64,000 bases of DNA, taken from Candidatus Poribacteria bacterium. Lineage in GTDB: Bacteria > Poribacteria > WGA-4E > WGA-3G. Below are positions 3,802-63,440 of this stretch, piece after piece. The stretch is taken from contig OZ251518.1 of assembly GCA_965242965.1 (NCBI GenBank), positions 3,513,838 to 3,577,837 of the forward strand. Direction: 5' to 3'. Numbering within the stretch: position 1 is the first letter of the stretch; each line of letters opens with the position of its first letter. The notes under the pieces were generated by a model. It saw nothing but the letters and a program-made list of their open reading frames with translations, was not told the DNA's origin and made no database searches. The position numbers were made by a program, and so were the translations under genes.

Positions 3802-4620
3802 CTAGGCCGATTTGACAAATCCGATGAGCGTCTGCACCAGCCATTCTGTATCTGGGAATTCCTCAAACGTCTTATGCAGCATCGCGAATTCAAGTTCCGC
3901 GAGGTAGCGTGCCTCTTCCTGCGCGTTTATCTCCTGTCTCCATTGCTTGAGAGCCGTGCGTTTACCCCCTGTTTCAATGTCGTGCATGCAAGCCGCAATA
4001 AGGTGGCTGTGCGTCTCCGCGGCTTTCATGAATTCCGAAGGATTTCCATTGAAATTTGCGCGTACGTCATCGTCAAGATGGCACCATTCTGTCATCCCTG
4101 CAAGCGCGAAAATCTGAAGTTCCTGGCGGTTCCGGTGAAGTGCATGTTGCCACGGTGCCAGTTCGTTGCGGAGATGCTGGATGTCATCACGCGTTTTTAC
4201 GGTGATGTTGAGATTTCCGTTAGTCCTCTCAATACCCTTACGGCCCGGATGGTGCCGGAAGAGTGTCAATTTGAGCCCGGTGATGGTAGTCGCGAGTAGC
4301 ACGTCTGGGTAAAGACGATGCGCGGGAACGATGTGCGCTTCGACATGTCTGCGGAGGGATTTTTCAATGTGCGCGAGCATTGCTAGCGTGTCGCCTTCAT
4401 AGTCCCACTCCTCAAGTTCATCGATGGCAGCGGGTTCAACGCCGAGGAGTTTGGCAAATTCCGATTGCGTCAGCCCAGTGGAGGTGCGTAAATTGTAGAT
4501 ATGTTCGGCAATCTTTAATTTAATCTCTTCACTAAGCGGCCCTTCTATTTTGGGGTGTCGCCCTAAATAAAACTGAGATATGGACGCAACCCCAGATGTG
4601 ATTCTGCTTTGTTCACTCAT
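3802..4620 (-). CDS. HTH XRE-family DNA-binding protein with an uncharacterised ~190-aa C-terminal domain
   Basis: TGLTQSEFAKLLGVEPAAIDELE helix-turn-helix. Start chosen at ATG 4620 (MSEQSRITS...), preceded by AGGAGA 7 nt upstream; the longer ORF to 4740 runs into a repeat. Confidence 0.65.
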   Translation of the reverse strand: MSEQSRITSGVASISQFYLGRHPKIEGPLSEEIKLKIAEHIYNLRTSTGLTQSEFAKLLGVEPAAIDELEEWDYEGDTLAMLAHIEKSLRRHVEAHIVPAHRLYPDVLLATTITGLKLTLFRHHPGRKGIERTNGNLNITVKTRDDIQHLRNELAPWQHALHRNRQELQIFALAGMTEWCHLDDDVRANFNGNPSEFMKAAETHSHLIAACMHDIETGGKRTALKQWRQEINAQEEARYLAELEFAMLHKTFEEFPDTEWLVQTLIGFVKSA

Positions 4621-4740
4621 TGGTGCTCTCCTGTGTGTGAGTGCCCGGGTCTTGCTCAAAATTGCGTTTGTTGCGGAGCGCGCGTTGGATTTCATTTTCG
4701 GGTGCGGCGGCACTCTTTTTGATGATGCCATGATCTCCAT

Positions 4741-6722: not shown

Positions 6723-7018
6723 AGGGTGTTTCATAACTCGCCCAACGTCGCGAGGACAGTCACCGGTGCTGCGGTAAAAAAACGCCGCTCCTTCACGTAG
6801 GGCGTGGGCCCTCGCATGCCACACGCGCATGCGAGCGGGTTTCCCTCGCCATGCGTTTGGCTGTCAGACCGCATCCCCTCTGTAGGTCAGGATCGCCTGA
6901 TCCTGACTCGTTTGTGATCAGGCGATCACAAACTACAGAGGTGGGCCCAATGCCTGCCGGTATTCGCCCTCCCTCCAAGGGCGGAATAAATACCGAAACG
7001 GTGTTATGAAACACCCTC
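6723..7018. repeat. repeat island bracketed by inverted TGAGGGTGTTTCATAA copies
   Basis: Left end GAGGGTGTTTCATAACTCG at 6723-6745 and right end TTATGAAACACCCTCAG at 7002-7018 in opposite orientation; interior holds the family-D palindrome CTCTGTAGGTCAGGATCGCCTGATCCTGAC...GATCACAAACTACAGAGG. Confidence 0.8.
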
Positions 7019-9439: not shown

Positions 9440-9905
9440 ACTGGAAGTGAGGGTGTTTCATAAATCCCCGTAGGAGAGACCTCCCGGTCTCGATGCAATA
9501 GAGCGGCGAGCCTACCGGGGCGGCGGCAGAAAGCCCCTTCATCGTAGGGCGAGGGCCTGTCCCTCGCCATCGTCGGCGCAATCCAACGCTCGCGGGGGAC
9601 AGGCCCCCGCACTACAAAAAACGTCTCTTAGGTCCGTAGGACCTTAATGTCTATAGCATGCGCGAACGCGAAGAATCCTAAGGTCCTTTAGGTCCTTAAT
9701 AGTTTTTGACATGCGGCGCGTTTTTTATTAAGGACCTAAAGGACCTTGAAAACGTAACGACACGTGTATCTATAGACATGTAGGTCCTAAAGGACCTAAA
9801 ACGTCCCCTCTTGACGCTGGCCAACGCGGGGCCTGTCCCCCGCGCTACGGGAACATCGAGACCAGGAGGTCTCTCCTACGGGGAGCCCTCGCCTTACGGG
9901 CACAG
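9440..9905. repeat. composite repeat island (E, A, B, C, B, A)
   Basis: TGAGGGTGTTTCATAAATCC, CCGTAGGAGAGACCTCCCGGTCTCGATG, REP-like CGTAGGGCGAGGGCCTGTCCCTCGCCATCG / CGCGGGGGACAGGCCCCCGCACTAC, and a full C element. Confidence 0.85.
9616..9803. repeat. C element copy 1: ~190-bp palindromic MITE-like element with 8 AGGTCC/GGACCT hexamers
   Basis: AGGTCCGTAGGACCTTAATGTCTATAGCA ... CTAAGGTCCTTTAGGTCCTTAATA ... TATTAAGGACCTAAAGGACCTTGAAAAC ... TATAGACATGTAGGTCCTAAAGGACCTAAAACG; left and right ~75-nt arms are near-perfect reverse complements. Confidence 0.85.
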
Positions 9906-11309: not shown

Positions 11310-12540
11310 TAATCTCCTTTTCCGGTAGGAGAGACCTCCCGGTCTCGATGCTCTTTAGTAGGAGAACCCTCCCGTTCTCGTTTTCCGGTAGGAGAGACCT
11401 CCCGGTCTCGATGCGTGACTCTGCCTTTTCATGATTAACAGCCCTATTAGTGAATAGACGGCCAATTTATAGTAAGTTTATCAGAAAGTGTCAGAATTGT
11501 CAAATTCGTTCAACAATTTCCAAAAAACTTTAGGATGCATCAGCGTAACGAGCACCAAAAATCCCGCGAGAGCTCTGATAGAAAATTTATCCGCTGGGGC
11601 ACGTTTCCGCACATGTAGAAATTGAGTATACCATAAAATCGTTGGAATGGCAAATCTTTTTTCTTCACCAGAGCGATTCAGTTCTTCCCAGTAGGTGCGC
11701 CTTCCCAATCTTGATTTCTGGTAGGAGAGACCTCCTGGTCTCGATTACCGTAGGGCGTGGGCCTGTGCCTCGCCGGGGTATCGCGCGCGGAGCGATCGCG
11801 GGGGACAGGCCCCGCGCTACGGTAACAGGTCATCTTCTTCACAAAACGTCCCCTCATCGTAGGGCGAGGGCCTGTCCCTCGCCATGCTTCGATCTACCGA
11901 ATGATCGCGTGGGCCTGTCCCCCGCGCTACGGTAGGCGGATTATCTTCTTCACAAAACGCCCCCCTTCACCGTAGGGCGTGGGCCTGTCCCTCGCCGGGG
12001 TATCGCGCGCGGAGCGATCGCGGGGGACAGGCCCCCGCGCTACGGTGAAAAAAATGCCTCCTCTTCACGTAGGGCGTGGGCCTGTCCCTCGCCATGCTCC
12101 GATCTACTGAATGATCGCGGGGGACAGGCCCCCGCGCTACGGTAACGGGCTATCTTCTTCACAAAACGCCCTCATCATCGTAGGGCGAGGGCCTGTCCCT
12201 CGCCATGTCTCGGGTTACCGAATGATCGCGTGGGCCTGTCCCCCGCGCTACGGTGAAAAAAATGCCTCCTCTTTACGTAGGGCGAGGGACAGGCCCTCGC
12301 CGCTGGATCCTGACTCGTTCGGGATCAGGCAATCCCGAACTACAGAGTTAGAGTGCGCGCCGCCTAGTTCAGGAGTGTGCATCGAGACCAGGAGGTCTCT
12401 CCTACTGGGGGAGTCGAGACCGGGAGGTCTCGCCTACGCGTCGGGGTAGGAGGGACATCCTTGTCCCGATACGAAAAATCGAGACCGGGAGGTTTCTCCT
12501 ACGGTGGTGCATCGAGACCAGGAGGTCTCTCCTACCGGAT
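11310..12540. repeat. 1.2-kb repeat island: A hairpins x3, ~97-bp tandem REP/BIME-like array, D palindrome, A hairpins x5
   Basis: Seen directly. ORFs 11642..11935, 12111..12449 and 12402..12614 are artefacts of it. Confidence 0.9.
11735..12310. repeat. tandem array (~6 units, ~97-bp period) of paired GC-rich palindromes
   Basis: Unit CCGTAGGGCGAGGGCCTGTCCCTCGCCATGC-N~20-ATCGCGGGGGACAGGCCCCCGCGCTACGG-N~30 (TATCTTCTTCACAAAACGCC...). The inter-repeat segments are themselves conserved, so this is not a CRISPR. Confidence 0.85.
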
Positions 12541-14039: not shown

Positions 14040-14340
14040 TGTCGGTAGGAGAGACCTCCCGGTCTCGATTACCGTAGGGCGAGGGCCTGTCCCTCGCCAT
14101 GCCTCGGCACCCCGAACGATCGCGGGGGACAGGCCCCCGCGCTACGGTGAAAAAACGCCGACTCTTCACGTAGGGCGAGGGCCTGTCCCTCGCCAGGCTG
14201 CGGTTTACCGGAAGATCGCGGGGGAAACCCGCTCGCATGCGCGTGTGGCATGCGAGGGCCCCCGCGCTACGGTAATCGTCGCGGCAGTCTCTCCTACCCG
14301 GCGGGCATCGAGCGATTTATGAAACTCCCTCAGATTAAAA
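14040..14340. repeat. repeat island (A, B x4, E at right end)
   Basis: GGTAGGAGAGACCTCCCGGTCTCGAT, REP-like pairs, and right end ATTTATGAAACTCCCTCAGATT (14318-14340). Confidence 0.85.
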
Positions 14341-17342: not shown

Positions 17343-17468
17343 GGACAACCTACGCGGGGGACAGGCCCCCGCGCTGCGGAAAAAAACGGCACGTCATCGT
17401 AGGGCTTGGGCCCTCGCATGCCACACGCGCATGCGAGCGGGTTTCCCTCGCCATCGTCCGCGCTACGC

Positions 17469-17512
17469 AAAAAACGTCTCTTGTTCTCTTCAGGTCCGTA
17501 GGACCTAAAAAC
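17469..17512. repeat. solo/empty-site-like form of the C element (AAAAAACGTCTCTTGTTCTCTTCAGGTCCGTAGGACCTAAAAAC)
   Basis: Carries the conserved left flank and only one AGGTCCGTAGGACCT palindrome, joined directly to the right-flank AAAAC. Confidence 0.6.
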
Positions 17513-17726
17513 ATAACTTGACGATGGAGATCGCGGGGGACAGGCCCCCGCGCTACGATGAAAAAAACGGCGTGCGTTACCGTAGGGCGAGGGCCTGTCC
17601 CTCGCCATCGTTCTCGGCCACGGACACTCGCGAGGGACAGGCCCCCGCGCTACGGTAAAAAACGGTATGTCATTGAACGCTCGCGGGGGCCTGTCCCCCG
17701 CGCTACCGGGAAAAAACGGCACTTCA

Positions 17727-17896
17727 CCGTAGGACCTTAATGTCTATAGCACGCGCGCCCGCCAAGAACGCTAAGGTCCTTTAGGTCCTTAATAGATTTT
17801 GCCAGGTCCACGCGTTTTTTATTAAGGACCTAAAGGACCTTGAAAAGGTGCCTGCACGTGTTTCTATAGACATTAAGGACCTAAAGACCTAAAACG
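17727..17896. repeat. C element copy 3
   Basis: CCGTAGGACCTTAATGTCTATAGCACGCGCG...TATTAAGGACCTAAAGGACCTTGAAAAGG...TATAGACATTAAGGACCTAAAGACCTAAAACG; the left arm is truncated into a B repeat. Confidence 0.8.
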
Positions 17897-18212
17897 CCAC
17901 CGTTTGACGATGGAGATTGCGGGGGACAGGCCCCCGCGCTACGGGGAAAAAACGGCACTTCACCGTAGGGCGTGGGCCTGTCCCTCGCAATCGTTCGGGC
18001 ACCCCAACACTCGCGGGGGACAGGCCCCCGCCCTACGGGAACATCGAGACCGGGAGGTCTCTCCTACCGGTGTTGCATCGAGATTCGAGGTTTCTCCTAC
18101 CGGAAGGAATCGGGCCCATCTCTGTAGTTCGGGAGCGCCCGCTCCCGAACGGGTCAGGATCGGGCGCTCCTGAACTACAGAGGTGATGACGTTGCGCGAT
18201 TTATGAAACACC

Positions 18213-24829: not shown

Positions 24830-25180
24830 GTCAGAGCGGTTCCGTTTTCCGTTTGGATTGAGGATTTGCGAGGGACAGGCTCTCGCCAGCATCCGCGCAC
24901 TCCAACGCGCGCGGGGGCCTGTCCCCCGCGCTACGATAAAAAACGCCGCCCCTCACCGTAGGGCGAGGGCCTGTCCCTCGCCATCGTTCTTGCGCCAGGC
25001 CCTGTAGTTCGGGCTCGCCGGATCCTGACCTGTTTGTGATCAGGCGCGCACAAACTACAGCGGGGGAAACACACATCATGCCGATGGAGATCGCGGGGGA
25101 CAGGCCCCCGCGCTACGGGACAATCGAGACCGGGAGGTCTCTCCTACCGAACACATCGAAATATGAAACACCCTCATTTA
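24830..25180. repeat. repeat island (B x3, D, B, A, E)
   Basis: Seen directly; right end ATATGAAACACCCTCATTTA abuts the stop of the next gene. Confidence 0.85.
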
Positions 25181-29244: not shown

Positions 29245-29462
29245 ACCTGAGGATGTTTCATAACTTGTTTTCCCCGGTAGGCGAGACCTCCTGGTCTCGA
29301 TTTCTTCTCGATAGGCGAGACCTCCTGGTCTCGATTTCTTCTCGGTAGGCGAGACCTCCTGGTCTCGATGTGGTGCGTATCGGGACAGGGATGTCCCTCC
29401 TACTGGGAAACATCAAGACACCCGCTCGTTTGCAAGAAGGCGATTTATGAAACACCCTCAGT
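29245..29462. repeat. repeat island bracketed by inverted E-like motifs, with A x3 inside
   Basis: GGATGTTTCATAACTTG (left) and ATTTATGAAACACCCTCAGTTT (right); three CGGTAGGCGAGACCTCCTGGTCTCGAT units. Confidence 0.8.
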
Positions 29463-30354: not shown

Positions 30355-30860
30355 TGTCTTTAACTGAGGGGGTTTCATATTTCGATGCGTTTGGTAAGAG
30401 AGACCTCCTGGTCTCGATTTCTTCCCGGTAGGAGAGACCTCTGGTCTCGATGCAATCGGACAGCGCGCCTCCCGGGGCCGCGGCGGCAGAAATCCCCCCT
30501 TCATCGTAGGGCGGTGGGAAGACCTGTCCCTCGCCAGCATCCGCGCACTCCACCGCTCGCGGGGGAAACCCGCTCGGATGCGCGTATGGCATCCGAGGGC
30601 CCCCGCGCTACGAAAAAAAACGCCCCCTCACCGTAGGGCGAGGGCCTGTCCCTCGCCATCGTTCTCGCGCCAGGCCCTGTAGTTCGGGCTCGCCGAATCC
30701 TGACCCGTTTGTGATCAGGCGCGCACAAACTACAGCGGGGGAAACACACATCATGCCGATGGAGATCGCGGGGGACAGGCCCCCGCGCTACGGGACAATC
30801 GAGACCGGGAGGTCTCTCCTACGGTGACACTGCTTGCATCGAGACCGGGGGGTGTCAGAA
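30355..30860. repeat. repeat island (E, A x2, B, D, B, A)
   Basis: Seen directly; ORFs 30122..30592, 30385..30636 and 30501..30749 are artefacts. Confidence 0.85.
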
Positions 30861-32700: not shown

Positions 32701-33018
32701 TTAGCCGACAGCTGCATTAGAAAAACTCGGGGACTTTCCATAGACGACTTCATCAGTCAGTGCGGCGAGATCTACTGACACCGTTTCCCACACACCATCG
32801 GCGTAATCGGGATTATTTTTATGGAAAGCGATGTTTTTGGGAGTAGGGATGGGCTCACTGTCAAGCAATAAGCCTTCAAGATAACATTCAATGGCTTCGA
32901 CAGCTTGCGTCTGCGCATCCTTGACCGTTTCCCCGGAAGTGAAGCACCCTGGTAAATCAGGCACTGTCACTCCATAGTCACTGCCCGGGTCTTTGTGGAG
33001 AACAATGGAATAACGCAT
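32701..33018 (-). CDS. hicB: HicB-family antitoxin
   Basis: MRYSIVLHKDPGSDYGVTVPDLPGCFTSGETVKDAQTQAVEAIECYLEGLLLDSEPIP matches the HicB N-terminal domain consensus. Confidence 0.85.
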   Translation of the reverse strand: MRYSIVLHKDPGSDYGVTVPDLPGCFTSGETVKDAQTQAVEAIECYLEGLLLDSEPIPTPKNIAFHKNNPDYADGVWETVSVDLAALTDEVVYGKSPSFSNAAVG

Positions 33019-33084: not shown

Positions 33085-33202
33085 TTCCGGCGGCGACTTA
33101 CTTTCCCACGGGGTTGCCCCCGCAGTATCATCAGCGCAGAAGGGCTTAACGGCCGTGTTCGGGATGGGAACGGGTGGTGCCCCTTCGCTATAGCCACCGG
33201 AA
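33085..33202 (-). rRNA. rrf: 5S ribosomal RNA
   Basis: Minus strand TCCGGTGGCTATAGCGAAGGGGCACCACCCGTTCCCATCCCGAACACGGCCGTTAAGCCCTTCTGCGCTGATGATACTGCGGGGGCAACCCCGTGGGAAAGTAAGTCGCCGCCGGAAAACC; ends approximate within ~3 nt. Confidence 0.9.
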
Positions 33203-33292
33203 AGGTGTTTTGTCATATATTGTATTGACAAGAAAATTTGACAATTGCATAGATTAGGTGAGGGTGTCGGTAGAAGAAATAATAAAGAAGTT

Positions 33293-36283
<2,991 letters not shown>

Positions 36284-36378
36284 ATAAGGTGATATTATTA
36301 TTCTACCGATTTACCCTCTCTATGCAATTGTCAAAGAACCCCGCCTTGCACAGGAGCGGGCGCTCCCTTACAAGACGA

Positions 36379-36451
36379 TGGAGATGAGCGGAGTTGAACC
36401 GCTGACCTTCTGGTTGCAAACCAGATGCTCTCCCAACTGAGCTACACCCCC
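36379..36451 (-). tRNA. tRNA-Ala (anticodon TGC)
   Basis: GGGGGTGTAGCTCAGTTGGGAGAGCATCTGGTTTGCAACCAGAAGGTCAGCGGTTCAACTCCGCTCATCTCCA; G3:U70 Ala identity pair present; CCA not encoded. Confidence 0.9.
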
Positions 36452-36469
36452 AAGTGGCATTACTCTTTA

Positions 36470-36901
36470 AGTATACCACAAAAAAACGCATTTGTCAAAT
36501 TTATTTTTCAAAAAAACGGATTTGCTGACACAAACCCTCGCGATGGTATATAGTATACCACGAAAACTGCGCAATGTCAAATTAAAATCAAATTAAAATG
36601 ACAATTTCGTCATCGTTGAGGTTAATTATACCACAAAAAAGATGCAATGTCAAATTAAAATGACGATTTCTGCGAATTTCTGCTGAATTACGCCACAAAA
36701 AGTGCGCGATGTCAAATTAAAACGACAATTTCGTCATCGTTGAGGTTAATTATACCACAAAAATGACGCAATGTCAAATTAAAATGACATTTTCTGCGGA
36801 ATTCTTGTTAATTCTGCCCCAAAAAGTGCGCGATGTCAAATTAAAACGACAATTTCGTCATCGTTGAGGTTAATTATACCACAAAAATGACGCAATGTCA
36901 A
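36470..36901 (-). promoter_or_regulatory. array of seven tandem sigma70-consensus promoters directed at tRNA-Ala/23S/5S
   Basis: Plus-strand coordinates of -35 (TGTCAA) and -10 (complement of the -10 hexamer), spacer exactly 17 in every case. P1: 36493-98 / 36470-75 (TATACT). P2: 36575-80 / 36552-57 (TATACT). P3: 36648-53 / 36625-30 (TATAAT). P4: 36710-15 / 36687-92 (CGTAAT). P5: 36772-77 / 36749-54 (TATAAT). P6: 36834-39 / 36811-16 (CAGAAT). P7: 36896-901 / 36873-78 (TATAAT). AT-rich UP-like TTTTAATT precedes each -35. Underlying ~125-bp tandem DNA repeats. Confidence 0.75.
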
Positions 36902-36903
36902 AT

Positions 36904-38859
36904 TTATTTAAAAAAAGTGCTCGTATCCCACAGCAGAATGGTGCCATCGAAACTGCCGCTCGCCAAAAGCGCGCCATCCGGCGAAAAGGCAAGAGACTGA
37001 ATGTCAGTGGAATGTCCCCAGAAAGTGGCGATGTTCTCACCCGTTGCAACCTCCCAGAATCTGATGGACATCTTATCCGTGCCTTGCCACGCTGCCCCCG
37101 ATACGAGATACCTGCCACATGGCGAAAATGTCAACGCCTCCGGTCTTTGGCATCCTTGCGGCAGGCATATCACCATGAGCGTTTCATACCTTTTCGCGTC
37201 CCATAGCCAAATTTCCCGGAAAATTCCACCGGCAATCACGTTCCCGCATGGCGAAAATACAACAGTCTTTGGAACAGCATTGTATTCTATCCGTTTAAGT
37301 GCGCGTTGAATTTGACGCGCATCGCCTTTATATTTCTCTAAATCTTTGGGACGGTGAGTGGACAGTTCCGTGATGAGCCGCCAATCGTCAACATCCCAAA
37401 GGAACGCTTTCGTATAGGGAGACGCGACAGCGAGGGACTTTCCATCAGGCGAAAAAGCGATGTGCCAAATCCAATCCGATTTTCCGTTCAGCGTCTGTAG
37501 CGCGGTTCCGTTTTGTAAATCCCACTCTATCAGGCCGCCGCCACCATCTGCGCTCACTAATCGTTCCTCTGTTGGAGAGAACGCGACAGCATAAATCGGT
37601 TTTTCCTGATGTCCCGTTAACTTCGCAATCGGCGCGTCGGGTTTCTCAACGTCCCACACCCTGACTATGCCATCGTAGGCACTGGCGGCGAGTTTGTTTC
37701 CACACGGCGAAAAACTGATTGAACGGATTGTCATCGGTTCTTCTGCGAAAACGACTTGCGGTTCTCGCCGCGCAACATCCCAAAAGATTATGTCTCCTAT
37801 CCAATGGCCGGCAGCCAACTTTTTTCCATCTGGGGAGAATTTGACGCAGCCACAGACATAGGGATGCTTCCGAATAAGGGCTTCGTGCGGCGTGGCCTCG
37901 CCGATATTCCACACCTGAATTGTGCGAGGACCGGCGATGGCCACGTGCGACTCTGTGGTTTGCGAAAAATGCGTGGCATGCGAAATTTCGCGCAGCTCTT
38001 TATGTTCCAACGCCGCTAATTTTTTGTTGCGTTCCATATCCCACACAATGAGCGTGGTGCCGCTGACCTCGGATGCGAGCAAAGTTCCCTTTGACGAATA
38101 AGCGAATCTCTTCCGGCCATTTGTCGAGGAGACGGTTGAAGGTTCTCCGGTTTCCGCGAGTCGGTTGACATCCCACTTCCGCAGCGTGCCCTCTCTGTCC
38201 GCTGTCGTCAGGAAAGTCCCGCACGGCGAGAAGAGCAGTGTTGTTACCGATGCCGTATGTCCGGTGAGACAAGCGATGCGTTCACCCGCTGTCAGATTCC
38301 AGACAGAAAAGGTGTTTTCAGCTGTCGCGCATGCGAGCAGAACGCCGTCCGGAGAAAAGGCGATGGGAATCCTCGGAAGAGGCCCCTTTTTAGGGGTATC
38401 GTCAACGGGGAATTCCGCAAGCGGTTCTCCGGTTTCGGCGTGCCAGACGTAAACAGTATCGTAGCGGCCCCCGGAACACGCTAAGCGTTGTCCGTCGGCT
38501 GAAAAGGCGAGCCGAGATACCTTATTCGCCTGTTTCCGGGTTCGTTCCATTTTGGCGATGCGTTGTTGGCTTGGCATATCCCAGACGCTCACGCCACCGT
38601 CCACATTGCCGGTAGCAAGCAAATGCCCGTTCGGCGAAAATGTCACCGCAGAAACCCCGCGTTCGGTATCCCATAACGCGAACGGTTCCATCGTGGACAC
38701 CTCGTAGAGCCAGAGCCCGATACCACTTCCGACGGCGAGAGTGTTCCTGTCTGGAGAGAATGCCAGTGCCCGCACCAACCCTCTGCCCAATCGTGCAATC
38801 GCGCCATCGGGGAGAATCCATGTGGTAATATCGCTATTTGCGCGATGCTGATTTTCCAC
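36904..38859 (-). CDS. WD40-repeat beta-propeller protein
   Basis: At least 12 WD40 repeats (e.g. GHSTDIQSLAFSPDGALLASGSFDGTILLWD). The start is uncertain: GTG at 38859 is preceded by GGAGG 6 nt upstream and avoids overlap with the LamG gene; the ATG-start ORF extends to 39075 but overlaps the upstream gene by 59-197 nt. Confidence 0.7.
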   Translation of the reverse strand: MENQHRANSDITTWILPDGAIARLGRGLVRALAFSPDRNTLAVGSGIGLWLYEVSTMEPFALWDTERGVSAVTFSPNGHLLATGNVDGGVSVWDMPSQQRIAKMERTRKQANKVSRLAFSADGQRLACSGGRYDTVYVWHAETGEPLAEFPVDDTPKKGPLPRIPIAFSPDGVLLACATAENTFSVWNLTAGERIACLTGHTASVTTLLFSPCGTFLTTADREGTLRKWDVNRLAETGEPSTVSSTNGRKRFAYSSKGTLLASEVSGTTLIVWDMERNKKLAALEHKELREISHATHFSQTTESHVAIAGPRTIQVWNIGEATPHEALIRKHPYVCGCVKFSPDGKKLAAGHWIGDIIFWDVARREPQVVFAEEPMTIRSISFSPCGNKLAASAYDGIVRVWDVEKPDAPIAKLTGHQEKPIYAVAFSPTEERLVSADGGGGLIEWDLQNGTALQTLNGKSDWIWHIAFSPDGKSLAVASPYTKAFLWDVDDWRLITELSTHRPKDLEKYKGDARQIQRALKRIEYNAVPKTVVFSPCGNVIAGGIFREIWLWDAKRYETLMVICLPQGCQRPEALTFSPCGRYLVSGAAWQGTDKMSIRFWEVATGENIATFWGHSTDIQSLAFSPDGALLASGSFDGTILLWDTSTFFK

Positions 38860-38878
38860 GCGCGCCCTCCGCGTTTGT

Positions 38879-39712
38879 TTACGGGGTATACCCGCGTTTG
38901 ACGTTTGCCCAAGTGGTTGCGAGTTTGTCAACCGCATCGACAGCAAAAGTGCCAGAGATGTTTTGGAGCACCTCTGCCTCGGTGAGTGCCTTATCATAAG
39001 CGCGGACGATGGCGAATGAACCGTTGAAAGTCCGCCGCCGTTCGTCGAAGGAATTCGCACCGATGGAGATGTCATTTATCGGTAACGCCTTGTCAAACTC
39101 AAAACCGGCTTGGCTGCTGACTTCTTCGCCATCTTGATATGCGACAATCGACTTGTCGTTAGTGCCGACAATCGTAAGCCAGGTCCACACGCCTTCCTCA
39201 AGTTTGAGGTTAAGCGGTTGAACGCCCTGTTTCGCACCTTGCGCATGGACAGAGATGTCCAAGTTTTGCCCGTTGACTATCCACAGCCGAATTCCCTGTT
39301 TCCCTTCCCGCGGGCTGTTTTGGAACCCGGCGAAGTGGTGTTCCTCCACAAAGAAATCGCCGTTGCGTCGGCAAAGGAACTCAAGCGTCCAGTCCTCAAA
39401 AAAGAGAGGCGGATTTTTTGCCGGCGGACCGCCGAAGGTTTGATGGGAATCCTTGGTTGTGTAATACTTCGCGTTCGGCAAGTCGATGCCGAGTGCAGGG
39501 ATTTTGATTGGCCCTTCCTCAAGTTCGGGTGCTTCGTCCGCGGCGGGTAATTCGCCTTCAGCCGTGCCGAGGTTTGTCCACGCGTCTTTGTGGCCTGGAT
39601 TATCAGCGGCATCGAGGTAAAGCACCGGGTCTGGAACGATATTAGCATTTGCGATGTTGCACGCGAGGGATAGGCAAAGTATCGTCGTGCAAAGTGAAAT
39701 AAGTGTTCTCAT
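38879..39712 (-). CDS. secreted LamG/concanavalin-A-like lectin-fold protein
   Basis: Signal peptide MRTLISLCTTILCLSLACNIANA; jelly-roll signature ...FNGSFAIVRAYDKALTEAEV. Confidence 0.6.
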   Translation of the reverse strand: MRTLISLCTTILCLSLACNIANANIVPDPVLYLDAADNPGHKDAWTNLGTAEGELPAADEAPELEEGPIKIPALGIDLPNAKYYTTKDSHQTFGGPPAKNPPLFFEDWTLEFLCRRNGDFFVEEHHFAGFQNSPREGKQGIRLWIVNGQNLDISVHAQGAKQGVQPLNLKLEEGVWTWLTIVGTNDKSIVAYQDGEEVSSQAGFEFDKALPINDISIGANSFDERRRTFNGSFAIVRAYDKALTEAEVLQNISGTFAVDAVDKLATTWANVKRGYTP

Positions 39713-39812
39713 TTGAGTCTTCCTCCTAGGGTTTGGAAAATAGATATGCCTCCGTTTCTGCTTGAAAACTATTATAACAGCATTTCAACATTTATTCAAG
39801 AGATAAAATAAG

Positions 39813-40560
39813 GGAATTTCATATTTCGATGTCTTTTTGGTAGGAGAGACCTCCCGGTCTCAATTTGTCCGTAGCGCGGGGGCCTGTCCCCCGCGATCGC
39901 AGCATGGCGAGGGACAGGCCCTCGCCCTACGGTGCGGGGGGTGGCGTTTTCGCGATCGCTGCATGGCCTACGATGAAGGGGGGAGGCGTTTTTTTTTCGT
40001 ATCGCGGGGGGGCTCGGATGCCAGACGCGCATCCGGGCTGGTTTCCCCCGCGAGTTCCATCGTCATGATGTGTGTTTCCCTCTCTGTAGTTTGTGATCGC
40101 CTGATCACAAACAGGTTAGGATCAGGCAATCCTGACCTACAGGGCCTGGCGCGAGAACGATGACGAGGGCCTGTCCCTCGCCATCGTTCGCGCTGCGGAA
40201 AAACCGTCTCTTGTTCTCTTCAGGTCCGTAGGACCTGAATGTCTATAGCAGCCGATACGCAAAATGCTCTAAGGGCCTTTAGGTCCTTAATAGCTTTTGC
40301 CAGGGCCGCGTGTTTTCTTATTAAGGACCTAAAGGACCTTGACAACGGTACGACACGTTTTTCTATAGACATGTAGGTCCTAACGGACCTAAAACGCCAC
40401 CTTGTGACGATGGAACAACGCGGGGGACAGGCCCCCGCGCTCCGGTAAAAAACGCCATCCCCTCACCGTAGGGCGGGGGCCTGTCCCTCGCCATCGTCCG
40501 CGCAATCCAATCCTCGCGGGGGACAGGCCCCGCGCTACGGATGCATCGAGACCAGGAGGT
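39813..40560. repeat. repeat island inside the 16S-23S insertion (E-like, A, B x3, D, B, C, B x2, A)
   Basis: Seen directly; ORFs 39837..40163, 39865..40068 and 40363..40803 (N-terminal part) are artefacts. Confidence 0.9.
40197..40397. repeat. C element copy 4
   Basis: AAAAACCGTCTCTTGTTCTCTTCAGGTCCGTAGGACCTGAATGTCTATAGCAG...TATTAAGGACCTAAAGGACCTTGACAAC...TATAGACATGTAGGTCCTAACGGACCTAAAACGCCAC. Confidence 0.85.
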
Positions 40561-40669
40561 CTCTCCTACCGGGATGCATGGATACCCGGCGCGCCTACCG
40601 GCAATTCCCCGTTTTTTGACTGTAGCTGAAGAAAACGCAATCGAAATCAGCAGCCATTGTGCATGTCTC

Positions 40670-40840
40670 CTAGCGAGTGTTTTCTGTAACGGCCGAGGGA
40701 TGTGGGCAGGTAACTTGCCCGGGTCTGTAATCACAATAACCTCTCCACCGGCATCCCTTCGTAACTGTTTGAGTCTTTTGACACCGGCTTCGTTCTGAGG
40801 CAACGATGAGAACCAGGAGAAAAACGATAAAGGCTTTCAT
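40670..40840 (-). CDS. possible small secreted Cys-containing peptide (56 aa)
   Basis: MKAFIVFLLVLIVASERSRCQKTQTVTKGCRWRGYCDYRPGQVTCPHPSAVTENTR; GGAG 8 nt upstream of the ATG. Below the 60-aa ORF-track cutoff; lies between a repeat island and tRNA-Ile. Confidence 0.3.
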   Translation of the reverse strand: MKAFIVFLLVLIVASERSRCQKTQTVTKGCRWRGYCDYRPGQVTCPHPSAVTENTR

Positions 40841-40988
40841 AAAACACTCCTTTTAAGAGCGACGGGCCATCGGGCAATTTGAAAAAACGAGGGGACAACG
40901 AGTAGGAAAGAAGGTATCCGTTCAGAAAACAACGACGATTTGAAAAGGGACCTTCCTTGAAAACCGCGCGATGTCAGTTTGATGTTGA

Positions 40989-41062
40989 TGGGCTTATCTG
41001 GAGTCGAACCAGAGACCTCGCGCTTATCAGGCGCGCGCTCTAACCGTCTGAGCTATAAGCCC
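40989..41062 (-). tRNA. tRNA-Ile (anticodon GAT)
   Basis: GGGCTTATAGCTCAGACGGTTAGAGCGCGCGCCTGATAAGCGCGAGGTCTCTGGTTCGACTCCAGATAAGCCCA; perfect 7-bp acceptor stem. Confidence 0.92.
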
Positions 41063-41160
41063 GAAGTAATGTTCTTGAAAGTTAAATAGTTTCAGTGAGT
41101 GTGCCCGTTAAGGTTCAGAGCGTGAACAGATGATTTGTGTGAGAAAGCATCTGTTGTATG

Positions 41161-42712
<1,552 letters not shown>

Positions 42713-42868
42713 CCACAAAAGTATTGAAGCACATCTCAAACGCAGGTAAGTGGAAAATCATACCCACGTCTTAATTGAGGTGCACTCACAAGCTATAAAA
42801 TAGGCACGTCACGTTCACTATTTAACTTTCAAAGAACAACTTCACCTTTCGTTGAAAGGTTATCTTTA

Positions 42869-42897: not shown

Positions 42898-43189
42898 GTT
42901 AAAATGATAAAAAAATGCAGAATTTTGCATAAAAAGACCTTTTTTTTACGATTTTTTCACTTTTTTTCAAAAAAAAGGTCTTTTTTTTTACGATGCGCGC
43001 GGTTTGCGTGCAAAAAAACGCGCATTTTGCGCGCGCGACGGACCAAAAACGCGCGCGGGTGAACAATACGCAAAATAAATTGGAATCAGGATTTTTGGGA
43101 TATGGGGTTCTTTTTCCTCGCGCGCAGGGCTCATTTCTCGCTCACAACGTCTGCATCGCAAAGATTCCGGGCGTTTTTCAGAAGATCGA

Positions 43190-43470
43190 GTCCGGCGAGG
43201 GCCTGTCCCTCTCCCTACTTTTGGAAATCGCGCATCCGCGAAAAACGTCTCTTCAGGTCCTTTAGGTCCTGCATGTCTATAGTAGCCCCGACGAAAAAAA
43301 CACTAAGGTCCTTTAGGTCCTTAATATATAGCAGACGTAACCGATGAGAAGCATTAAGGACCTAAAGGACCTTGAAGAAGCGGGTGCCTGCGCGTGCTAT
43401 AGACATTCAGGTCCTACGGACCTAAAGAGCGCGCCTTTTCATCAAGTAGGCATCTTCCCTGAAAGACTCC
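43190..43470. repeat. repeat island with C element copy 5 (43241..43433)
   Basis: A half-B repeat (GGCGAGGGCCTGTCCCTC) then AAAAACGTCTCTTCAGGTCCTTTAGGTCCTGCATGTCTATAGTAG...CATTAAGGACCTAAAGGACCTTGAAGAAG...TATAGACATTCAGGTCCTACGGACCTAAAGAGCGCG. Confidence 0.85.
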
Positions 43471-43477
43471 CTTTAAT

Positions 43478-43850
43478 TGAGGGTATTTCATAAATCGTTC
43501 AACGTCGCGGTGATGAGCGCACCCGTAAAAAACGTCTCTTCAGGTCCTTTAGGTCCTGCATGTCTATAGTAGCCCCGACGCAAAAAAACACTAAGGTCCT
43601 TTAGGTCCTTAATATACAGCAGACGTAACCGATGAGAAGCATTAAGGACCTAAAGGACCTTGAGGACGCGGGTGCCTGCGCGTGCTATAGACATTCAGGT
43701 CCTACGGACCTGAAGAGCGCGTCTTTTCATCGTAGGTCAAGATCGCCTGATCTTGACCCGTTCGGGAGCGGGCGCTCCCGAACTACAGAGGTGGGTCCGA
43801 TGCCCCCCGGTAGGAGAGACCTCCCGGTCTCGATGGCTCTCCTACTTTTT
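43478..43850. repeat. repeat island: E motif, C element copy 6 (43529..43723), D palindrome, A hairpin
   Basis: TGAGGGTATTTCATAAATCGTTCAACGTCGCGGTGATGAGC; a near-identical duplicate of copy 5 (~97% identity); GTAGGTCAAGATCGCCTGATCTTGACCCGTTCGGGAGCGGGCGCTCCCGAACTACAGAGGTG; CCGGTAGGAGAGACCTCCCGGTCTCGATG. Confidence 0.85.
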
Positions 43851-50498: not shown

Positions 50499-50890
50499 TT
50501 GTCTGAGGGTATTTCATATCTCGATGGCTTCCCCGTAGGAGAGCCCTCCCGGTCTCGATGCGAGCGGTGTCCCCGTAACCGAGCTCTCCTGGTCTCGATG
50601 CAATTTGTCCTTGTCCCTCGCTATCGTCCGCGTAATCCAACGCTCGCGGGGGACAGGCCCCCGCGCTACGGTTGTCAAGGCCGCTTCCTTTCATCGTAGG
50701 GCGAGGGCCTGTCCCTCGCCATGCTTCGATCCACCGAACGCTCGCGGGGGACAGGCCCCCGCGCTACGGTAACGGGAGGGGTTCTTAGTCGAAAAACGCC
50801 GTCCTTTCCCGTAGGGCGAGGGCCTGTCCCTCGCCATGCTGCGGTCTACCGGACAGTCGCGGGGGACAGTCCCCCGCGCTACGGTACTGT
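50499..50890. repeat. repeat island (E, A x3, B pairs x3)
   Basis: CTGAGGGTATTTCATATCTCGATGGCTTCCCCGTAGGAGAGCCCTCCCGGTCTCGATG... then REP-like pairs. Confidence 0.85.
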
Positions 50891-52960
50891 GACATTAATG
50901 CCATAAAGCGCAGCCACCTCCCGTTCCAGCACAACCTCAAGCGCAGATACATCCGCCGCAAAATCCGCGCGTTTCGCAGACAGAATCGCATCAACTAACG
51001 CAACAACCGGTGCCTGCCGCGCCGGCGAAACATCTGGAATCGGCAGTTTCTTCCAATCATCCGGATAGAGGTGGATATTGCTCCGACGATTTGCCATTAA
51101 GAAATCACGCGCTACGTTTGAATTCATCACGCCGAGCAGGAACTTCACCGAGAATCGACGACTCGTTTTTTCCAATTCTTCGCGCCGCGGGAGTTCCGGA
51201 CGCTGAGGCTTTTCATCACGATAACGAGCCTTCTGTTTTATCGAGCGGTTCCGAACCCCTGCTAAATCGTGCCAAAGCACGAAGGACCAGGCTGATTGAT
51301 TATGACGGAGATGCTGAGCATCGTAGGATACCTTCAATTTCTCAACGCCAGCCGCCATGTCCGCCGAAATTAATCTTTCCGCAACTTCGTATAATTCGGG
51401 AAACGTTGTTGACGTGAATAAGGCAGGCGCGCGTTCTGTCCCCCACTCCAGCCATTTCTTTGTCGCGGGCAGCCAGCGCGCGAGATGTTTGCCTTCCACA
51501 AACGGTTTCGGGTGAGTTGCGTCTTGGATATCTGAAACCAAATCCCGCACGCCAAACGCGCCGCGCGCGTGCTTGTTCGCATGAACTACCATCCCAACAG
51601 AGATATAGCAGAGGGTTTCAAGCGTCACCGTTGGAACAGAAAACTGCTGAACCTCGGTATCTTCCGGAAAAAAGAGACGATAGGTGAGGTTCCGTTGTGC
51701 GTCGGTTGGCAATAGAGTAACGTTCCCAAATTCGGGCCCGTGCAGCCTGCGTTCCGGTTGATGCTCGCGCCCATCAACTCTCTGAAACAGATAGGTGATA
51801 TTCCGCACGGCGGCATCGAAGATTCGGATATCGCGGAAGAAGTCAAGGCGACATATCCGACTATTCTCCCGAAACCACTCCTGCGATTTCTGGGCATACT
51901 TCGCGTGACAATAGGCATCCGAAACGATGAATGTCGTGAAACCTCCCGGCTTGAGCAGTTTGTAGCTGCGCTCAATAAATGGAATGTAGAGATCCCACTT
52001 TCCGAAGAGGGTTTCATACTGCGCGCTATCCTTAATTGCCTGACGCAACGCCTGTTGCCCCGGTGCATCCGCTCTCACGTAAGGCGGATTACCAATCGTA
52101 ATATCAAATCCTGCCGAAATCCCAAACATCCATTCCGCATTGAAGAAATCAGCAGAGGCGTTCTGATTATACGGGTCCCACGCTGCCAACTCTTGCGCCG
52201 TGCCACTCGGTAAGCCTAAGTCAGCAAGCAACGCGCTTATCTCCGTGCGCAAACGTTTATCCTGCCGGCGATACCGCGCCTTCGTCCGAAGCGTGCGAGC
52301 CGTGAAATGACGACGACGCACCTCTGATAGCTCCCGCTCCTTCTCGCTGATGTCGGGGCTGCGGAGAGACAATTGTCCTTCAATGCCGAGCAGCGTGTTC
52401 GCCGCAACGAACTTCGTTTCCAAATTCGGCAACGGCCGCACACCGCGATTCGCCTGTGTTTCGTCTAGCCGCTGATCGACGATAAGCGAGATGAAGAAGC
52501 GCAGCTTGGCAATCTGCGTCGCAATCGGCTGGATGTCCACGCCGTAGATGCAGTTTTCTATCAGATAGAGTTTCCTGCCGTAGTCCAGTTCGTTCCGTTC
52601 AAACGCGTCGTTGATGCTCTCTATCTCGCTTTCAAGTTCGTGGAGCGTGTTTTCGCGGAACGTGCTGTCGTCAATCTGTTCGGCGGCGGCGATGGTGCGG
52701 CGCACCCTGTCTATCTGGCGTTGCCGCCACTGTGCATTGCCCGGGTCAAGTTTACCAAGCAGGAAGACGAGTTTGTGCAGGATGCCCATCGGGAAGGCAC
52801 CGGAGCCGCAGGCAGGATCGAGGATTTTGAGCGCGTCAATGGCGGTGATGAGGCACTCGGTTTCTGCTTCGGTGAACCGATGCGGTTCATCGGTATAGGC
52901 GAGGAGGTGGCGCAGGGCTGCGTCCAAATCGGTGGACTTTACCCCCCCCCTTCGCGTCAC
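50879..52960 (-). CDS. MmeI-like Type IIG restriction-modification enzyme, C-terminal part (gamma-class N6-adenine methyltransferase motifs I and IV plus target-recognition region); frameshifted from the upstream ORF
   Basis: ILDPACGSGAFPMGIL (motif I) and ITIGNPPYVRAD (motif IV). The ORF begins with GTG inside a G9 run; it is out of frame by 1 nt with 52887..54515. Confidence 0.7.
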   Translation of the reverse strand: MTRRGGVKSTDLDAALRHLLAYTDEPHRFTEAETECLITAIDALKILDPACGSGAFPMGILHKLVFLLGKLDPGNAQWRQRQIDRVRRTIAAAEQIDDSTFRENTLHELESEIESINDAFERNELDYGRKLYLIENCIYGVDIQPIATQIAKLRFFISLIVDQRLDETQANRGVRPLPNLETKFVAANTLLGIEGQLSLRSPDISEKERELSEVRRRHFTARTLRTKARYRRQDKRLRTEISALLADLGLPSGTAQELAAWDPYNQNASADFFNAEWMFGISAGFDITIGNPPYVRADAPGQQALRQAIKDSAQYETLFGKWDLYIPFIERSYKLLKPGGFTTFIVSDAYCHAKYAQKSQEWFRENSRICRLDFFRDIRIFDAAVRNITYLFQRVDGREHQPERRLHGPEFGNVTLLPTDAQRNLTYRLFFPEDTEVQQFSVPTVTLETLCYISVGMVVHANKHARGAFGVRDLVSDIQDATHPKPFVEGKHLARWLPATKKWLEWGTERAPALFTSTTFPELYEVAERLISADMAAGVEKLKVSYDAQHLRHNQSAWSFVLWHDLAGVRNRSIKQKARYRDEKPQRPELPRREELEKTSRRFSVKFLLGVMNSNVARDFLMANRRSNIHLYPDDWKKLPIPDVSPARQAPVVALVDAILSAKRADFAADVSALEVVLEREVAALYGINVTVP

Positions 52961-55512: not shown

Positions 55513-55529
55513 ATTTATGTTCCAATAAT

Positions 55530-55745: not shown

Positions 55746-55757
55746 TCGATGCCTCCC

Positions 55758-58407: not shown

Positions 58408-58975
58408 TTGAGGGTGTTTTATAACTCGCTCAACGTTGCGGTGACAGGCCCCGCGCTACGGTAAAAAAACGCCTCTCCTTTACGTAGGGCGAGGGCCTGT
58501 CCCTCGCCATGCAGCGATCGCGGGGGACAGGCCCCCGCGCTACGGGAAAAAACGGCACTTCACCGTAGGGCGAGGGCCTGTCCCTCGCCATGCCACATGT
58601 GCATGCGAGCGGGTTTCCCTCGCCATCGTTCGCTCGCCGGAAAAAACGTCTCTTGTTCTCTTCAGGTCCGTAGGACCTTAATGTCTATAGCACGCGCGCC
58701 TGCAAAGAACGCTAAGGTCCTTTAGGTCCTTAATAACTTTTGCCATGCGGCGCGTGTTTTTTATTAAGGACCTAAAGGACCTTGAAAACAGCGCGACACG
58801 TGTTTCTATAGACATTAAGGACCTAAAGGACCTAAAACGCCACTGTTTGACGATAGAGATCGCGGGGGACAGGCCCCCGCGCTACGATAAAAGACGGTTC
58901 TTGAGAAAACGCGGGGGACAGGCCCCCGCGCTACGGGAACATCGAGACCAGGAGGTCTCTCCTACCGGACAATGG
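58408..58975. repeat. repeat island (E, B pairs x3, C copy 7, B x3, A)
   Basis: ATTGAGGGTGTTTTATAACTCGCTCAACGTTGCGGTGACAGG at the left end; C element at 58641..58842. Confidence 0.9.
58641..58842. repeat. C element copy 7
   Basis: AAAAAACGTCTCTTGTTCTCTTCAGGTCCGTAGGACCTTAATGTCTATAGCACGCGCG...TATTAAGGACCTAAAGGACCTTGAAAAC...TATAGACATTAAGGACCTAAAGGACCTAAAACGCCAC. Confidence 0.85.
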
Positions 58976-60654: not shown

Positions 60655-61330
60655 GTTTAACAACAGTAGGAGAGACCTCCCGGTCTCGATTTCTTCGGGT
60701 AGGAGAGACCTCCCGGTCTCGATGTTCCCGTAGCGCGTGGGCCCTCGGATGCCACACGCGCATCCGAGCGGGTTTCCCCCGCGATGGCTCAAGAACCGTT
60801 TTTTTTTCGTAGCGCGGGGGCCTGTCCCCCGCGATCTCCATCGACAAGAGATGACGTTTTAGGTCCTTTAGGACCTACATGTCTATAGAAACACGTGCCG
60901 GTCCCACGGCAAGGTCCTTTAGGTCCTTAATAAAAAACGCGCCGCATGGCAAAGCCTATTAAGGACCTAAAGGACCTTAGCATTCTTCGCGTCTGTGCGT
61001 GCTATAGACATTCAGGTCCTACAGACCTGAAGAGAACAAGAGACGTTTTTTCCGTAGCGTGAACGATGGCGAGGGACAGGCCCTCGCCCTACGATGAAGG
61101 GGGACCTTCTGCCGCCGCGGCTCTGGTAGGCGCGCTGCCCTATTGCATCGAGACCAGGAGGTCTCGCCTACCGGGGAAACGGAAGCGTTTGAGGTTTCAC
61201 GAAACCATTTTTGACAACAACGAGTTATGAAACACCCTCATTTAACGCTCGCGGGGGACAGGCCCCCGCGCTACGGTATCATTGAGAGATGCTTGTGGGG
61301 GACAGGCCCCCGCGCTACGGTATCATTGCA
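60655..61330. repeat. repeat island (A x2, B x2, C copy 8 inverted, B, A, E, B2 x2)
   Basis: Seen directly; ORFs 60571..60792 and 60629..60847 are artefacts. Confidence 0.9.
60853..61050. repeat. C element copy 8 (opposite orientation)
   Basis: GACGTTTTAGGTCCTTTAGGACCTACATGTCTATAGAAACACGTG...TATTAAGGACCTAAAGGACCTTAGCATTC...TATAGACATTCAGGTCCTACAGACCTGAAGAGAACAAGAGACGTTTTTT. Confidence 0.85.
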
Positions 61331-63064: not shown

Positions 63065-63440
63065 GGCGCGATACGCTCCCCGGTAGGAGAGTCCTCCCAG
63101 TCTTGATGCAATAGGGCGGCGCGCCTACCGGGGCCGCGGCAGCAGAAGGTCCCCCTTCATCGTAGGACGAGGGACAGGCCCTCGCCAGCGTCCGCGGAAT
63201 CCAACGCGCGCGGGGGACAGGCCCCCGCACTACGAAAAAAACGTCTCTTAGGTCCGTAGGACCTTAATGTCTATAGCACGCGCGCCCGCGAAGAAGCCTA
63301 AGGTCCTTTAGGTCCTTAATAGGTTTTGCCAGGGCCGCGCGTTTTGTTATTAAGGACCTAAAGGACCTTGAAAACGGGCCGACACGTGCTGCTATAGACA
63401 TGTAGGTCCTAAAGGACCTAAAACGTCCTCTTGGGGAGTG
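63065..63440. repeat. repeat island (A, B pairs, C copy 9 at 63235..63425)
   Basis: CCGGTAGGAGAGTCCTCCCAGTCTTGATG..., REP-like pair, AAAAAAACGTCTCTTAGGTCCGTAGGACCTTAATGTCTATAGCACGCGCG...TATAGACATGTAGGTCCTAAAGGACCTAAAACG. Confidence 0.9.

Follow-up and report, generated by a model that had tools for sequence, protein, structure and literature searches.

What kind of repeat is the palindromic element of about 190 bp that recurs between the genes of a Poribacteria chromosome, and how do its copies arise and persist? The question was raised by a stretch of 64,000 nucleotides from Candidatus Poribacteria bacterium (assembly GCA_965242965.1, contig OZ251518.1, positions 3,513,838 to 3,577,837), here called the window and numbered from its first letter, in which an initial annotation had described eight full copies of the element and one apparent empty site. 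Poribacteria are uncultivated sponge symbionts. The genes of the window encode sulfatases and WD40, LamG, TPR and PhyH proteins, a content that fits Poribacteria, and its intergenic regions are saturated with at least three GTAG-tagged families of repetitive extragenic palindromic (REP) sequences in addition to this modular element. On balance we read the element as a phased array of candidate protein-binding sites on duplex DNA, propagated together with REP-cluster sequence.

It is close to certain that the repeat family is real and non-autonomous, and it is apparently undescribed before and specific to one Poribacteria lineage. The initial annotation knew of no named counterpart, and none was found here. 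BLAST searches of plasmids and phages gave no match to the element, Rfam at gathering thresholds recognized only rRNA and tRNA in the window, and a permissive Rfam search with one copy returned sub-threshold generic miRNA-hairpin noise. A literature search on the motif and on Poribacteria together with REP, REP-associated tyrosine transposase (RAYT) or MITE (miniature inverted-repeat transposable element) returned no relevant paper, and none on Poribacteria non-coding DNA.

Module anatomy, phasing and conservation

The number of full copies, eight in 64 kb, was confirmed by a profile search, by sequence shuffling and by hexamer clustering. An nhmmer profile built from the eight copies gave exactly eight full matches in the window (184-214 bits) plus a short site at 17469-17509. 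The 15-mer AGGTCCGTAGGACCT occurred eight times with at most one mismatch, against 0.00 expected from 100 dinucleotide-preserving shuffles, and nine clusters, lying where the initial annotation had placed them, contained 61 of the 74 AGGTCC/GGACCT hexamers of the window. The element is non-coding, with a core of 168-170 bp (about 200 bp with flanks), and all copies in the window are intergenic, in tandem, convergent and divergent gene contexts and in both orientations (Table 1). Pairwise identity between paralogous copies was 60-91% with invariant boxes, except for the adjacent copies 43241 and 43529, where the near-identity of about 97% first noted was measured as 98%.

What is repeated is a quasi-palindromic heptamer, AGGWCCT. 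The AGGTCC words of the initial annotation are present, but its distinction between direct and inverted hexamer pairs dissolves into this one heptamer, since the pairs differ only in the central A or T. The basic unit, which the initial annotation missed, is a module of 51-52 bp, in which two heptamers form a dyad of 15-16 bp, accompanied by a TAATGTCTATAG box and by a spacer of about 23 bp that is conserved only loosely. The dyads are of GTA-type (dyad 1), TTT-type or TAAA-type. In the 190-bp element two modules point rightward and two leftward (2+2 convergent): dyad 1 with TAATGTCTATAG (28 bp), spacer A (22 nt) and dyad 2 with TTAAT are followed by a centre of about 25 nt, and then by ATTAA with dyad 3, spacer B (22 nt) and CTATAGACAT with dyad 4. 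The outer dyad and its ATGTCTATAG box thus form terminal inverted repeats of about 28 bp, invariant at both ends. The arms had been called near-perfect reverse complements, which holds for the conserved boxes, whereas the 22-nt spacers are not complementary in the RNAalifold consensus of 13 copies. The same profile scored each copy at about 200 bits forward and about 100 bits reversed, indicating that the element has a polarity.

Neighbouring dyads were separated, centre to centre, by 50-53 bp in 45 of 47 intervals from all genomes with modules. Since 51-52 bp corresponds to approximately five turns of B-DNA, all dyads lie on the same side of the helix. The length of the central interval was kept within this phasing although its sequence is unrelated between the main subfamily and a second subfamily (copies 43241 and 43528), which has its own flanks, centre and spacers. 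Both copies of subfamily 2 are in the minus orientation, so that the copy at 60853, correctly described as inverted, is not the only one. In individual copies the central W of AGGWCCT was flipped, without a compensating change in the other arm.

A pattern scan of reference genomes gave matches only in the Candidatus Poribacteria metagenome-assembled genome AGPOR5, where, at three loci, three copies are full, one is degenerate and two are half copies. Orthologous loci were obtained via the 2-hydroxyacid dehydrogenase gene (59676-60641) and the LamG gene (38879-39712). Modules and the same REP family were present in loci L005, L007-L009, L017 and L019, in which the orthologue of the dehydrogenase or of LamG shows 91% identity or more. 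Neither the module nor the REP family REP1 was found in the more distant Poribacteria loci L010 and L012-L016, some of which were fetched via orthologues of a conserved xanthine-dehydrogenase subunit. Scans of viral contigs and metagenomes gave one chance match each (L011 and L004, respectively) in which the other features of the element are missing, and L004 looks coding.

The relatives carry the modules in other arrangements. At the site of copy 58641, whose orthologue in L005 is 11805-12010, L007 and L019 hold direct arrays of two modules only, and L009 holds a quarter copy (one dyad and one box). At another place in L007 a direct array of at least four modules is interrupted by an inserted REP, a second site in L019 is 3+3 divergent, first three modules pointing left and then three pointing right, with about 110 bp of other DNA between them, and L003 carries half copies. 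The half copies and the direct tandem and divergent arrays indicate that the module, and not the palindrome, is the unit. The 190-bp palindrome is thus one arrangement of the module, the form that multiplied in the lineage of the window and in AGPOR5.

Copy 40199 corresponds to L017:79-280, which is 94% identical and has the AGGGCC mutation in common with it. On the other hand, copy 60847 was missing from the orthologous intergenic regions of L005, L007, L009 and L019, and copy 63236 from that of L005. L005 is the closest relative (flanking dehydrogenase 96% identical) and has the orthologue of copy 58641 and a solo site, without 60847 and 63236; insertions are thus polymorphic between related genomes, and the pattern of presence and absence could serve as a strain marker. 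The REP clusters around these sites vary from strain to strain as well, so that exact ends and duplications could not be read from these comparisons.

Conservation of the boxes in place was determined in the two orthologous pairs, 40199 with L017:79-280 and 58641 with L005:11805-12010. The boxes (AGG.CC cores, ATGTCTATAG and CCTTAAT) occupy 140 of the 339 core positions (41%), yet 27 of the 29 differences within the cores lay outside them and only 2 inside (Fisher P = 3.9e-5). This distribution indicates that the boxes are maintained in place, through selection or conversion, beyond what inheritance from a recent burst would give.

Two functions had been proposed at first, a hairpin RNA of about 190 nt and an array of sites at which a dimeric DNA-binding protein would bind. 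The second fits better with the phasing, the W flips, the occurrence of direct as well as inverted arrays and the conservation of the boxes. A single-stranded structure, either an RNA hairpin (terminator, mRNA stabiliser, RNase III substrate or small-RNA precursor) or an extruded DNA cruciform, seems improbable to us. Compared with shuffled controls, the fold of both strands is indeed much more stable (-89.5 and -98 kcal/mol, z about -11.5 and -12.4), the main subfamily has a weak terminator-like 5-bp hairpin with a T-run after it in its centre, and loop inversions (GTA/TAC in dyad 1, CCTGT/ACAGG in the REPs) show hairpin behaviour at some stage. However, all paired columns of the 13-copy alignment were invariant, with a covariation term of +1.44, and the 22-nt spacers formed large internal loops. 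The W flips produce uncompensated mismatches, the folding energy showed no strand bias (9 versus 5 copies, mean -2.3 +/- 6.0 kcal/mol), and the copies do not keep to one orientation with respect to the genes. A direct array of modules is unable to form the hairpin, and the central interval is constant in length though a hairpin loop need not be. No Rfam family reached threshold either, and the marks of a structured non-coding RNA, namely covarying pairs, strand specificity and a curated family, were lacking. The uncompensated W flips, the non-complementary spacers and the covariation term point instead to recognition of the duplex.

Other candidates were also discarded. An intrinsic terminator does not fit, since after the hairpin of the whole element the one strand reads AAAACG and the other GAAGAG, without a U-run. 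Promoter-like sequence reached only 9 of 12 matches, in the centres of subfamily 2, and the real rRNA promoter lies 350 bp further downstream. A CRISPR array does not fit, since the spacers of about 23 bp are homologous between modules and copies, the arms are inverted and no cas genes occur in the window.

A cluster of restriction-modification or methyltransferase sites, eight of them concentrated as an epigenetic or decoy element, is in our estimation very improbable. AGGWCCT fits RGGWCCY (PpuMI-type) and contains GGWCC (AvaII-type), and enzymes recognizing GGWCC tolerate the degenerate central W, which is the degeneracy seen here. Outside the elements, GGACC reached 0.68 and GGTCC 0.65 of the expected count, which places both among the 35 lowest of the 1024 pentamers, but this depletion is weak and similar to that of many other pentamers, and full heptamers occurred there at expectation (1 versus 1.4 and 1 versus 1.7). 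This explanation also leaves the TATAG box, the phasing at 51 bp and the REP context unaccounted for. No gene for a fitting enzyme is linked; the methylase encoded nearby belongs to the Eco57I family, and the founding enzyme of that family has an asymmetric recognition site.

REP context and the spread of copies

The window contains three GTAG-tagged repeat families (REP1, REP2 and REP3), and the elements are embedded among them, a context that the initial annotation missed. REP1 is represented by about 55-59 hairpins (GCGAGGGCCTGTCCCTCGC or GCGGGGGACAGGCCCCCGC) arranged in inverted doublets joined by the linker GAAAAAACGnCnnCTCTTCAC. These are G+C-rich hairpins with a GTAG tag, as is characteristic of REPs, and REP2 and REP3 are likewise GTAG-tagged. 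The AGGWCCT module is not a tagged hairpin of this kind: GTAG is found in the GTA-type dyad 1 and is absent from the TTT- and TAAA-types.

A recurring frame, GTAGG-REP_A-catcgttcgcgctacgg-AAAAAACGTCTCTT(GTTCTCTTC)-core-AAAACGCCACC..TTGACGATGGAGATC-REP_G-GCTAC, with REP_A on the left and an inverted REP_G on the right, surrounded 7 of 14 full copies and both solo sites (described below). The conserved flanks first reported, AAAAAACGTCTCTT(GTTCTCTTC) and AAAACG(C/T)C.., were present in six of the eight copies of the window, but they are not specific to the element, since both resemble the ordinary linker GAAAAAACGnCnnCTCTTCAC between the REP doublets (REPINs) of this genome. The order REP_A - catcgttcgcgctacgg - linker - core - linker - ttgacgatggagatc - REP_G recurs, and judged from this arrangement the element and the REPs make up a mosaic like the bacterial interspersed mosaic elements (BIMEs). 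At copy 17711 the junction falls exactly at a REP tag (caccGTAGG|ACCT). No REP frame was present at subfamily 2, whose flanks are linker-like but inverted, at the right side of copy 63236, or at L001a and L002c.

This framing raises the possibility, which we hold only tentatively, that the mobile unit is a REPIN with cargo: the outer doublet REP_A ... REP_G would be cut and pasted in single-stranded form by a RAYT (a tyrosine transposase of the HUH kind), with the AGGWCCT core, or a lone dyad in the case of the solos, carried along in its spacer. The geometry of the framed copies and solos is that of the ordinary REPINs of the genome, the element and REP1 co-occur or are co-absent at all loci, solos at unrelated sites share a right-flank variant as if a framed unit had been copied, and the tag junction of copy 17711 agrees with this origin. 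Against it stand the unframed copies listed above, the REPs around orthologous copies, which turn over faster than the element, and the absence of a RAYT (Y1 transposase) gene from the window and the fetched loci. The co-occurrence may reflect shared lineage only, and we know of no description of a REPIN spacer of about 250 bp. This explanation concerns the spread of the copies and is compatible with the boxes being binding sites.

The initial annotation had called the element MITE-like. It is indeed short, non-coding, multi-copy, polymorphic and built as an inverted repeat, but no target-site duplication could be demonstrated and no cognate transposase was found in the window or the fetched loci. 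We consider it rather unlikely that it is a classical MITE, that is, a DDE-type transposon reduced by internal deletion, mobilised in trans and targeting REP-linker sequence, in which the transposase would bind several subterminal AGGWCCT/TATAG sites per end. Transposases that bind several sites per end are known, TnsB on Tn7 ends and MuA on Mu ends. The size of the element, the inverted outer 28-bp boxes with two sites per arm in inverted order, and the presence or absence of copies between close strains agree with this origin, as do the linker-like direct repeats AAAACG(T/C)C..CTCTT that bracket the core and could be a duplicated specific target. Insertion sequence (IS) elements that target REPs are documented (PMC1525189). 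However, when fixed-length target duplications were sought, the linker-like flanks were similar in all copies and, except at copy 17711, no more alike within one copy than between copies, so that a target duplication is unsupported; the flanks of subfamily 2 are inverted and not direct. Direct tandem and divergent module arrays are unlike transposon ends, and the copies are old and diverged, yet boxes are intact in orthologous copies. Neither a parent autonomous element with the same ends nor a transposase with these ends was found in the about 300 kb examined (window and related loci).

The site at 17469-17512 had been taken for an empty or excised site. It keeps both flanks and a dyad, and a second solo lies at a non-orthologous place, L005:12127-12142. 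The dyad of the window solo is of GTA-type and that of the L005 solo of TAAA-type, and both solos have the same right-flank variant, which is found also in the full copy L002b. Different hybrid dyads are as expected of independent deletions between near-identical outer dyads. The solos are therefore better read as apparently collapsed copies, produced by internal deletion between the outer dyads, than as unoccupied targets; for 17469-17512 an excision footprint stays conceivable.

The REP families showed further regularities. Dense stretches of REP hairpins with a conserved A-rich linker lie, for example, at 11755-12300, 14079-14193, 17354-18031 and 50646-50877. REP1 has two stem variants (GCGAGGG.../GCGGGGG...), a CCTGT or ACAGG loop and the same GCTACGG tail. 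REP2 (GTAGGAGAGACCTCCYGGTCTCGAT) has 38 copies, often in tandem pairs or triplets by gene ends (e.g. 12381-12535, 29277-29369 and 60666-60723). REP3 consists of five 59-bp double hairpins CTGTAG...CTACAG (6880-6938, 18122-18180, 25002-25060, 30677-30735 and 40084-40142) and occurs also at L007:20340-20420, L009:16290-16350 and in L019; in these relatives it is inserted within AGGWCCT modules, directly after the TATAG box.

Candidate binding sites and known repeat systems

The sequences show how the element is built and phased, that constraint is specific to its boxes, that copies are present or absent between strains and that they nest among REPs, whereas protein binding, the identity of the protein and the mechanism of copying are inferred. 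The conserved boxes are most likely sites on duplex DNA that a sequence-specific protein, probably a dimer, recognizes, and with four dyads about five turns apart, four bound proteins would sit on the same face of the helix. Such a geometry would suit cooperative assembly or DNA wrapping, compare BIMEs that bind IHF or gyrase and sopC bound by SopB. New copies would arise along with REP-linker sequence, either by the REP/RAYT machinery acting on the REPIN-like frame, by a transposase or by recombination between REP clusters. Arrays would grow, invert and collapse via recombination between near-identical dyads, the solo at 17469-17512 being one such collapse.

Several points weigh against an array of protein-binding sites. 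No protein that binds the boxes was identified, and no isolated dyad precedes any gene of the window as an operator would. A link with the helix-turn-helix gene at 3802-4740, raised in the initial annotation, was not borne out: nothing ties this gene to the element, its match to HTH_37 (E = 2e-4) is below the Pfam cut-off, and there is no isolated dyad near genes. Neither a transposase nor a RAYT gene was present in the window or the fetched loci. Gene conversion among copies, and not selection, could explain the conservation of the boxes. The very stable hairpin formed by either strand leaves room for a role as extruded or single-stranded DNA or as RNA. The direct and divergent arrays are known from two related genomes, at two loci only, and comparison with L005, L007 and L009 gave no clean empty site for copies 60847 and 63236.

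In a bolder version of the binding-site reading, to which we assign a low probability, the four-dyad array would be a domesticated architectural element, providing several hundred nucleoprotein assembly sites genome-wide for a dedicated Poribacteria protein. This protein may be, for example, nucleoid-organising or of the occlusion type, and the sites may be under purifying selection at each locus after having been seeded via the REP machinery. If so, the repeat family would be a built-in chromosome-structuring system and not selfish DNA. If instead the copies spread as REPINs with cargo, the range of what RAYT-type systems can move would widen. With its box-specific conservation, strict five-turn phasing and freely oriented modules, the element is a good candidate for an architectural or a recombination site bound by protein, and not plain junk.

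In kind, the element comes closest to BIMEs, REPIN clusters and structured MITEs. In E. coli, BIME-1 (RIP, RIB) consists of REP doublets flanking the IHF-binding L motif, a single IHF site of about 30 bp. Like the Poribacteria element, E. coli BIMEs are mosaics of inverted GTAG-type REP hairpins around a conserved non-REP motif, strictly intergenic, present in many copies and variable in content between strains. Their central motif is a duplex protein-binding site, and by analogy the Poribacteria core would be one too. In contrast to that single site, the Poribacteria centre is about 170 bp long with four phased dyads and two TATAG boxes, and the element occurs also unframed by REPs and as tandem arrays, in an unrelated phylum.

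REPs and REPINs mobilised by RAYTs (PMC3116915, PMC3337134, PMC3733652) are, like our element, palindromic, non-autonomous and intergenic, with long vertical inheritance yet variable between strains. The Poribacteria flanking repeats are textbook GTAG-tagged doublets, and singlets, doublets and clusters all occur, as they do here. The AGGWCCT module differs from REPs in being not a G+C-rich hairpin of 20-40 bp but a unit of 51 bp with a dyad and an asymmetric box; the GTAG of dyad 1 is not conserved in the other dyads, and no RAYT accompanies it in the window or fetched loci.

Neisseria Correia elements, enterobacterial repetitive intergenic consensus (ERIC) sequences and the Porphyromonas gingivalis MITE are likewise strain-variable, imperfect intergenic palindromes of 100-250 bp. 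The P. gingivalis MITE contains a minisatellite, so that tandem modules inside a MITE are known (PMC4596501). For the Poribacteria element, in contrast, a target duplication is not supported and the sequence examined holds no parent insertion sequence. Its old and diverged copies show conservation of the boxes rather than uniform decay, and its modules form direct, convergent and divergent arrays.

Among modular repeats, pneumococcal BOX (boxA-boxB(n)-boxC) is also intergenic, and its internal module, of about 45-50 bp, is repeated a variable number of times. Its modules have a fixed order and orientation and are considered to work as an RNA structure, whereas those of Poribacteria carry dyads, are freely inverted and give no RNA signal. 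F-plasmid sopC has 12 repeats of 43 bp, each with a 7-bp inverted repeat bound by SopB. Tandem modules of 40-50 bp with a short dyad each, in which spacing matters more than spacer sequence, are common to sopC and our element, if by analogy the latter binds a protein as well. Unlike sopC, a single locus by sopAB, the Poribacteria modules are dispersed, about one site per 8-20 kb, without linked par-like genes.

Feature coordinates and neighbouring loci

The copies in the window, the parts of the reference copy and an example of a neighbouring REPIN are listed in Table 1.

Table 1. Positions of the full copies, of the solo site and of the parts of copy 1 in the 64-kb window
Feature	Position	Strand	Remarks	Evidence
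Full copy 1 (reference)	9616..9811	+		sequence, nhmmer 207 bits, dyad positions
Copy 1, left flank	9616-9629		linker-like	
Copy 1, dyad 1	9630-9644			
Copy 1, TAATGTCTATAG box	9645-9656			
Copy 1, spacer A	9657-9680			
Copy 1, dyad 2	9681-9696			
Copy 1, centre	9697-9730			
Copy 1, dyad 3	9731-9746			
Copy 1, spacer B	9747-9769			
Copy 1, CTATAGACAT box	9770-9779			
Copy 1, dyad 4	9782-9797			
Copy 1, right flank	9798-9816		linker-like	
GTAG-tagged REP doublet (REPIN), example	9549..9610		beside copy 1; GTAGG-GCGAGGGCCTGTCCCTCGC ... GCGGGGGACAGGCCCCCGC-ACTAC	
Solo site	17469..17512	+	single dyad AGGTCCGTAGGACCT (17492-17506) within both conserved flanks; between REP_A-type and REP_G-type hairpins	
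Full copy 2	17711..17904	+	REP-linker sequence in place of first hexamer; last dyad degenerate	nhmmer
Full copy 3	40199..40404	+	in split rRNA operon, between tRNA-Ile and LamG gene	nhmmer
Full copy 4, subfamily 2	43241..43437	-	different centre and spacers, inverted linker-like flanks; upstream of 16S gene	
Full copy 5, subfamily 2	43528..43725	-	tandem duplicate of copy 4, 98% identical	
Full copy 6	58641..58847	+	REPIN-like frame (REP_A ... REP_G)	
Full copy 7	60847..61051	-	REPIN-like frame	
Full copy 8	63236..63432	+	end of inserted block is ...AAAACGTCCTCTTGGG	

The rRNA operon of the window (33085-42719, minus strand) is split, with the order 16S, tRNA-Ile, copy 40199, the LamG gene (38879-39712), a WD40 gene (36904-39075), tRNA-Ala, 23S and 5S. 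Protein genes also follow 16S-tRNA-Ile or precede tRNA-Ala-23S in L013, L014 and L017, and the split looks conserved in Poribacteria. L017 starts 78 bp before the element orthologous to copy 40199, and L018 starts before reaching that position; the contigs that begin near it include a long-read assembly at 3.65x coverage, which suggests that the repeat breaks short-read and some long-read assemblies.

A perfect consensus sigma-70 promoter (TTGACA-17-TATAAT, 42897-42869, minus strand) lies about 150 bp upstream of the 16S gene, and long A- and T-runs upstream of it (42900-43020) resemble an UP element. A HicB-like antitoxin gene (32701-33018, minus strand) is located directly downstream of the 5S rRNA gene, and L017 has HicB and HicA at the same place. 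At 50879-55803 (minus strand) the Eco57I-family methylase gene is followed by two large genes (542 and 446 aa) without Pfam matches. The cluster, a possible defence island, has syntenic counterparts in L005, L007 and L019, and in these the third gene faintly matches nucleoside deoxyribosyltransferase.

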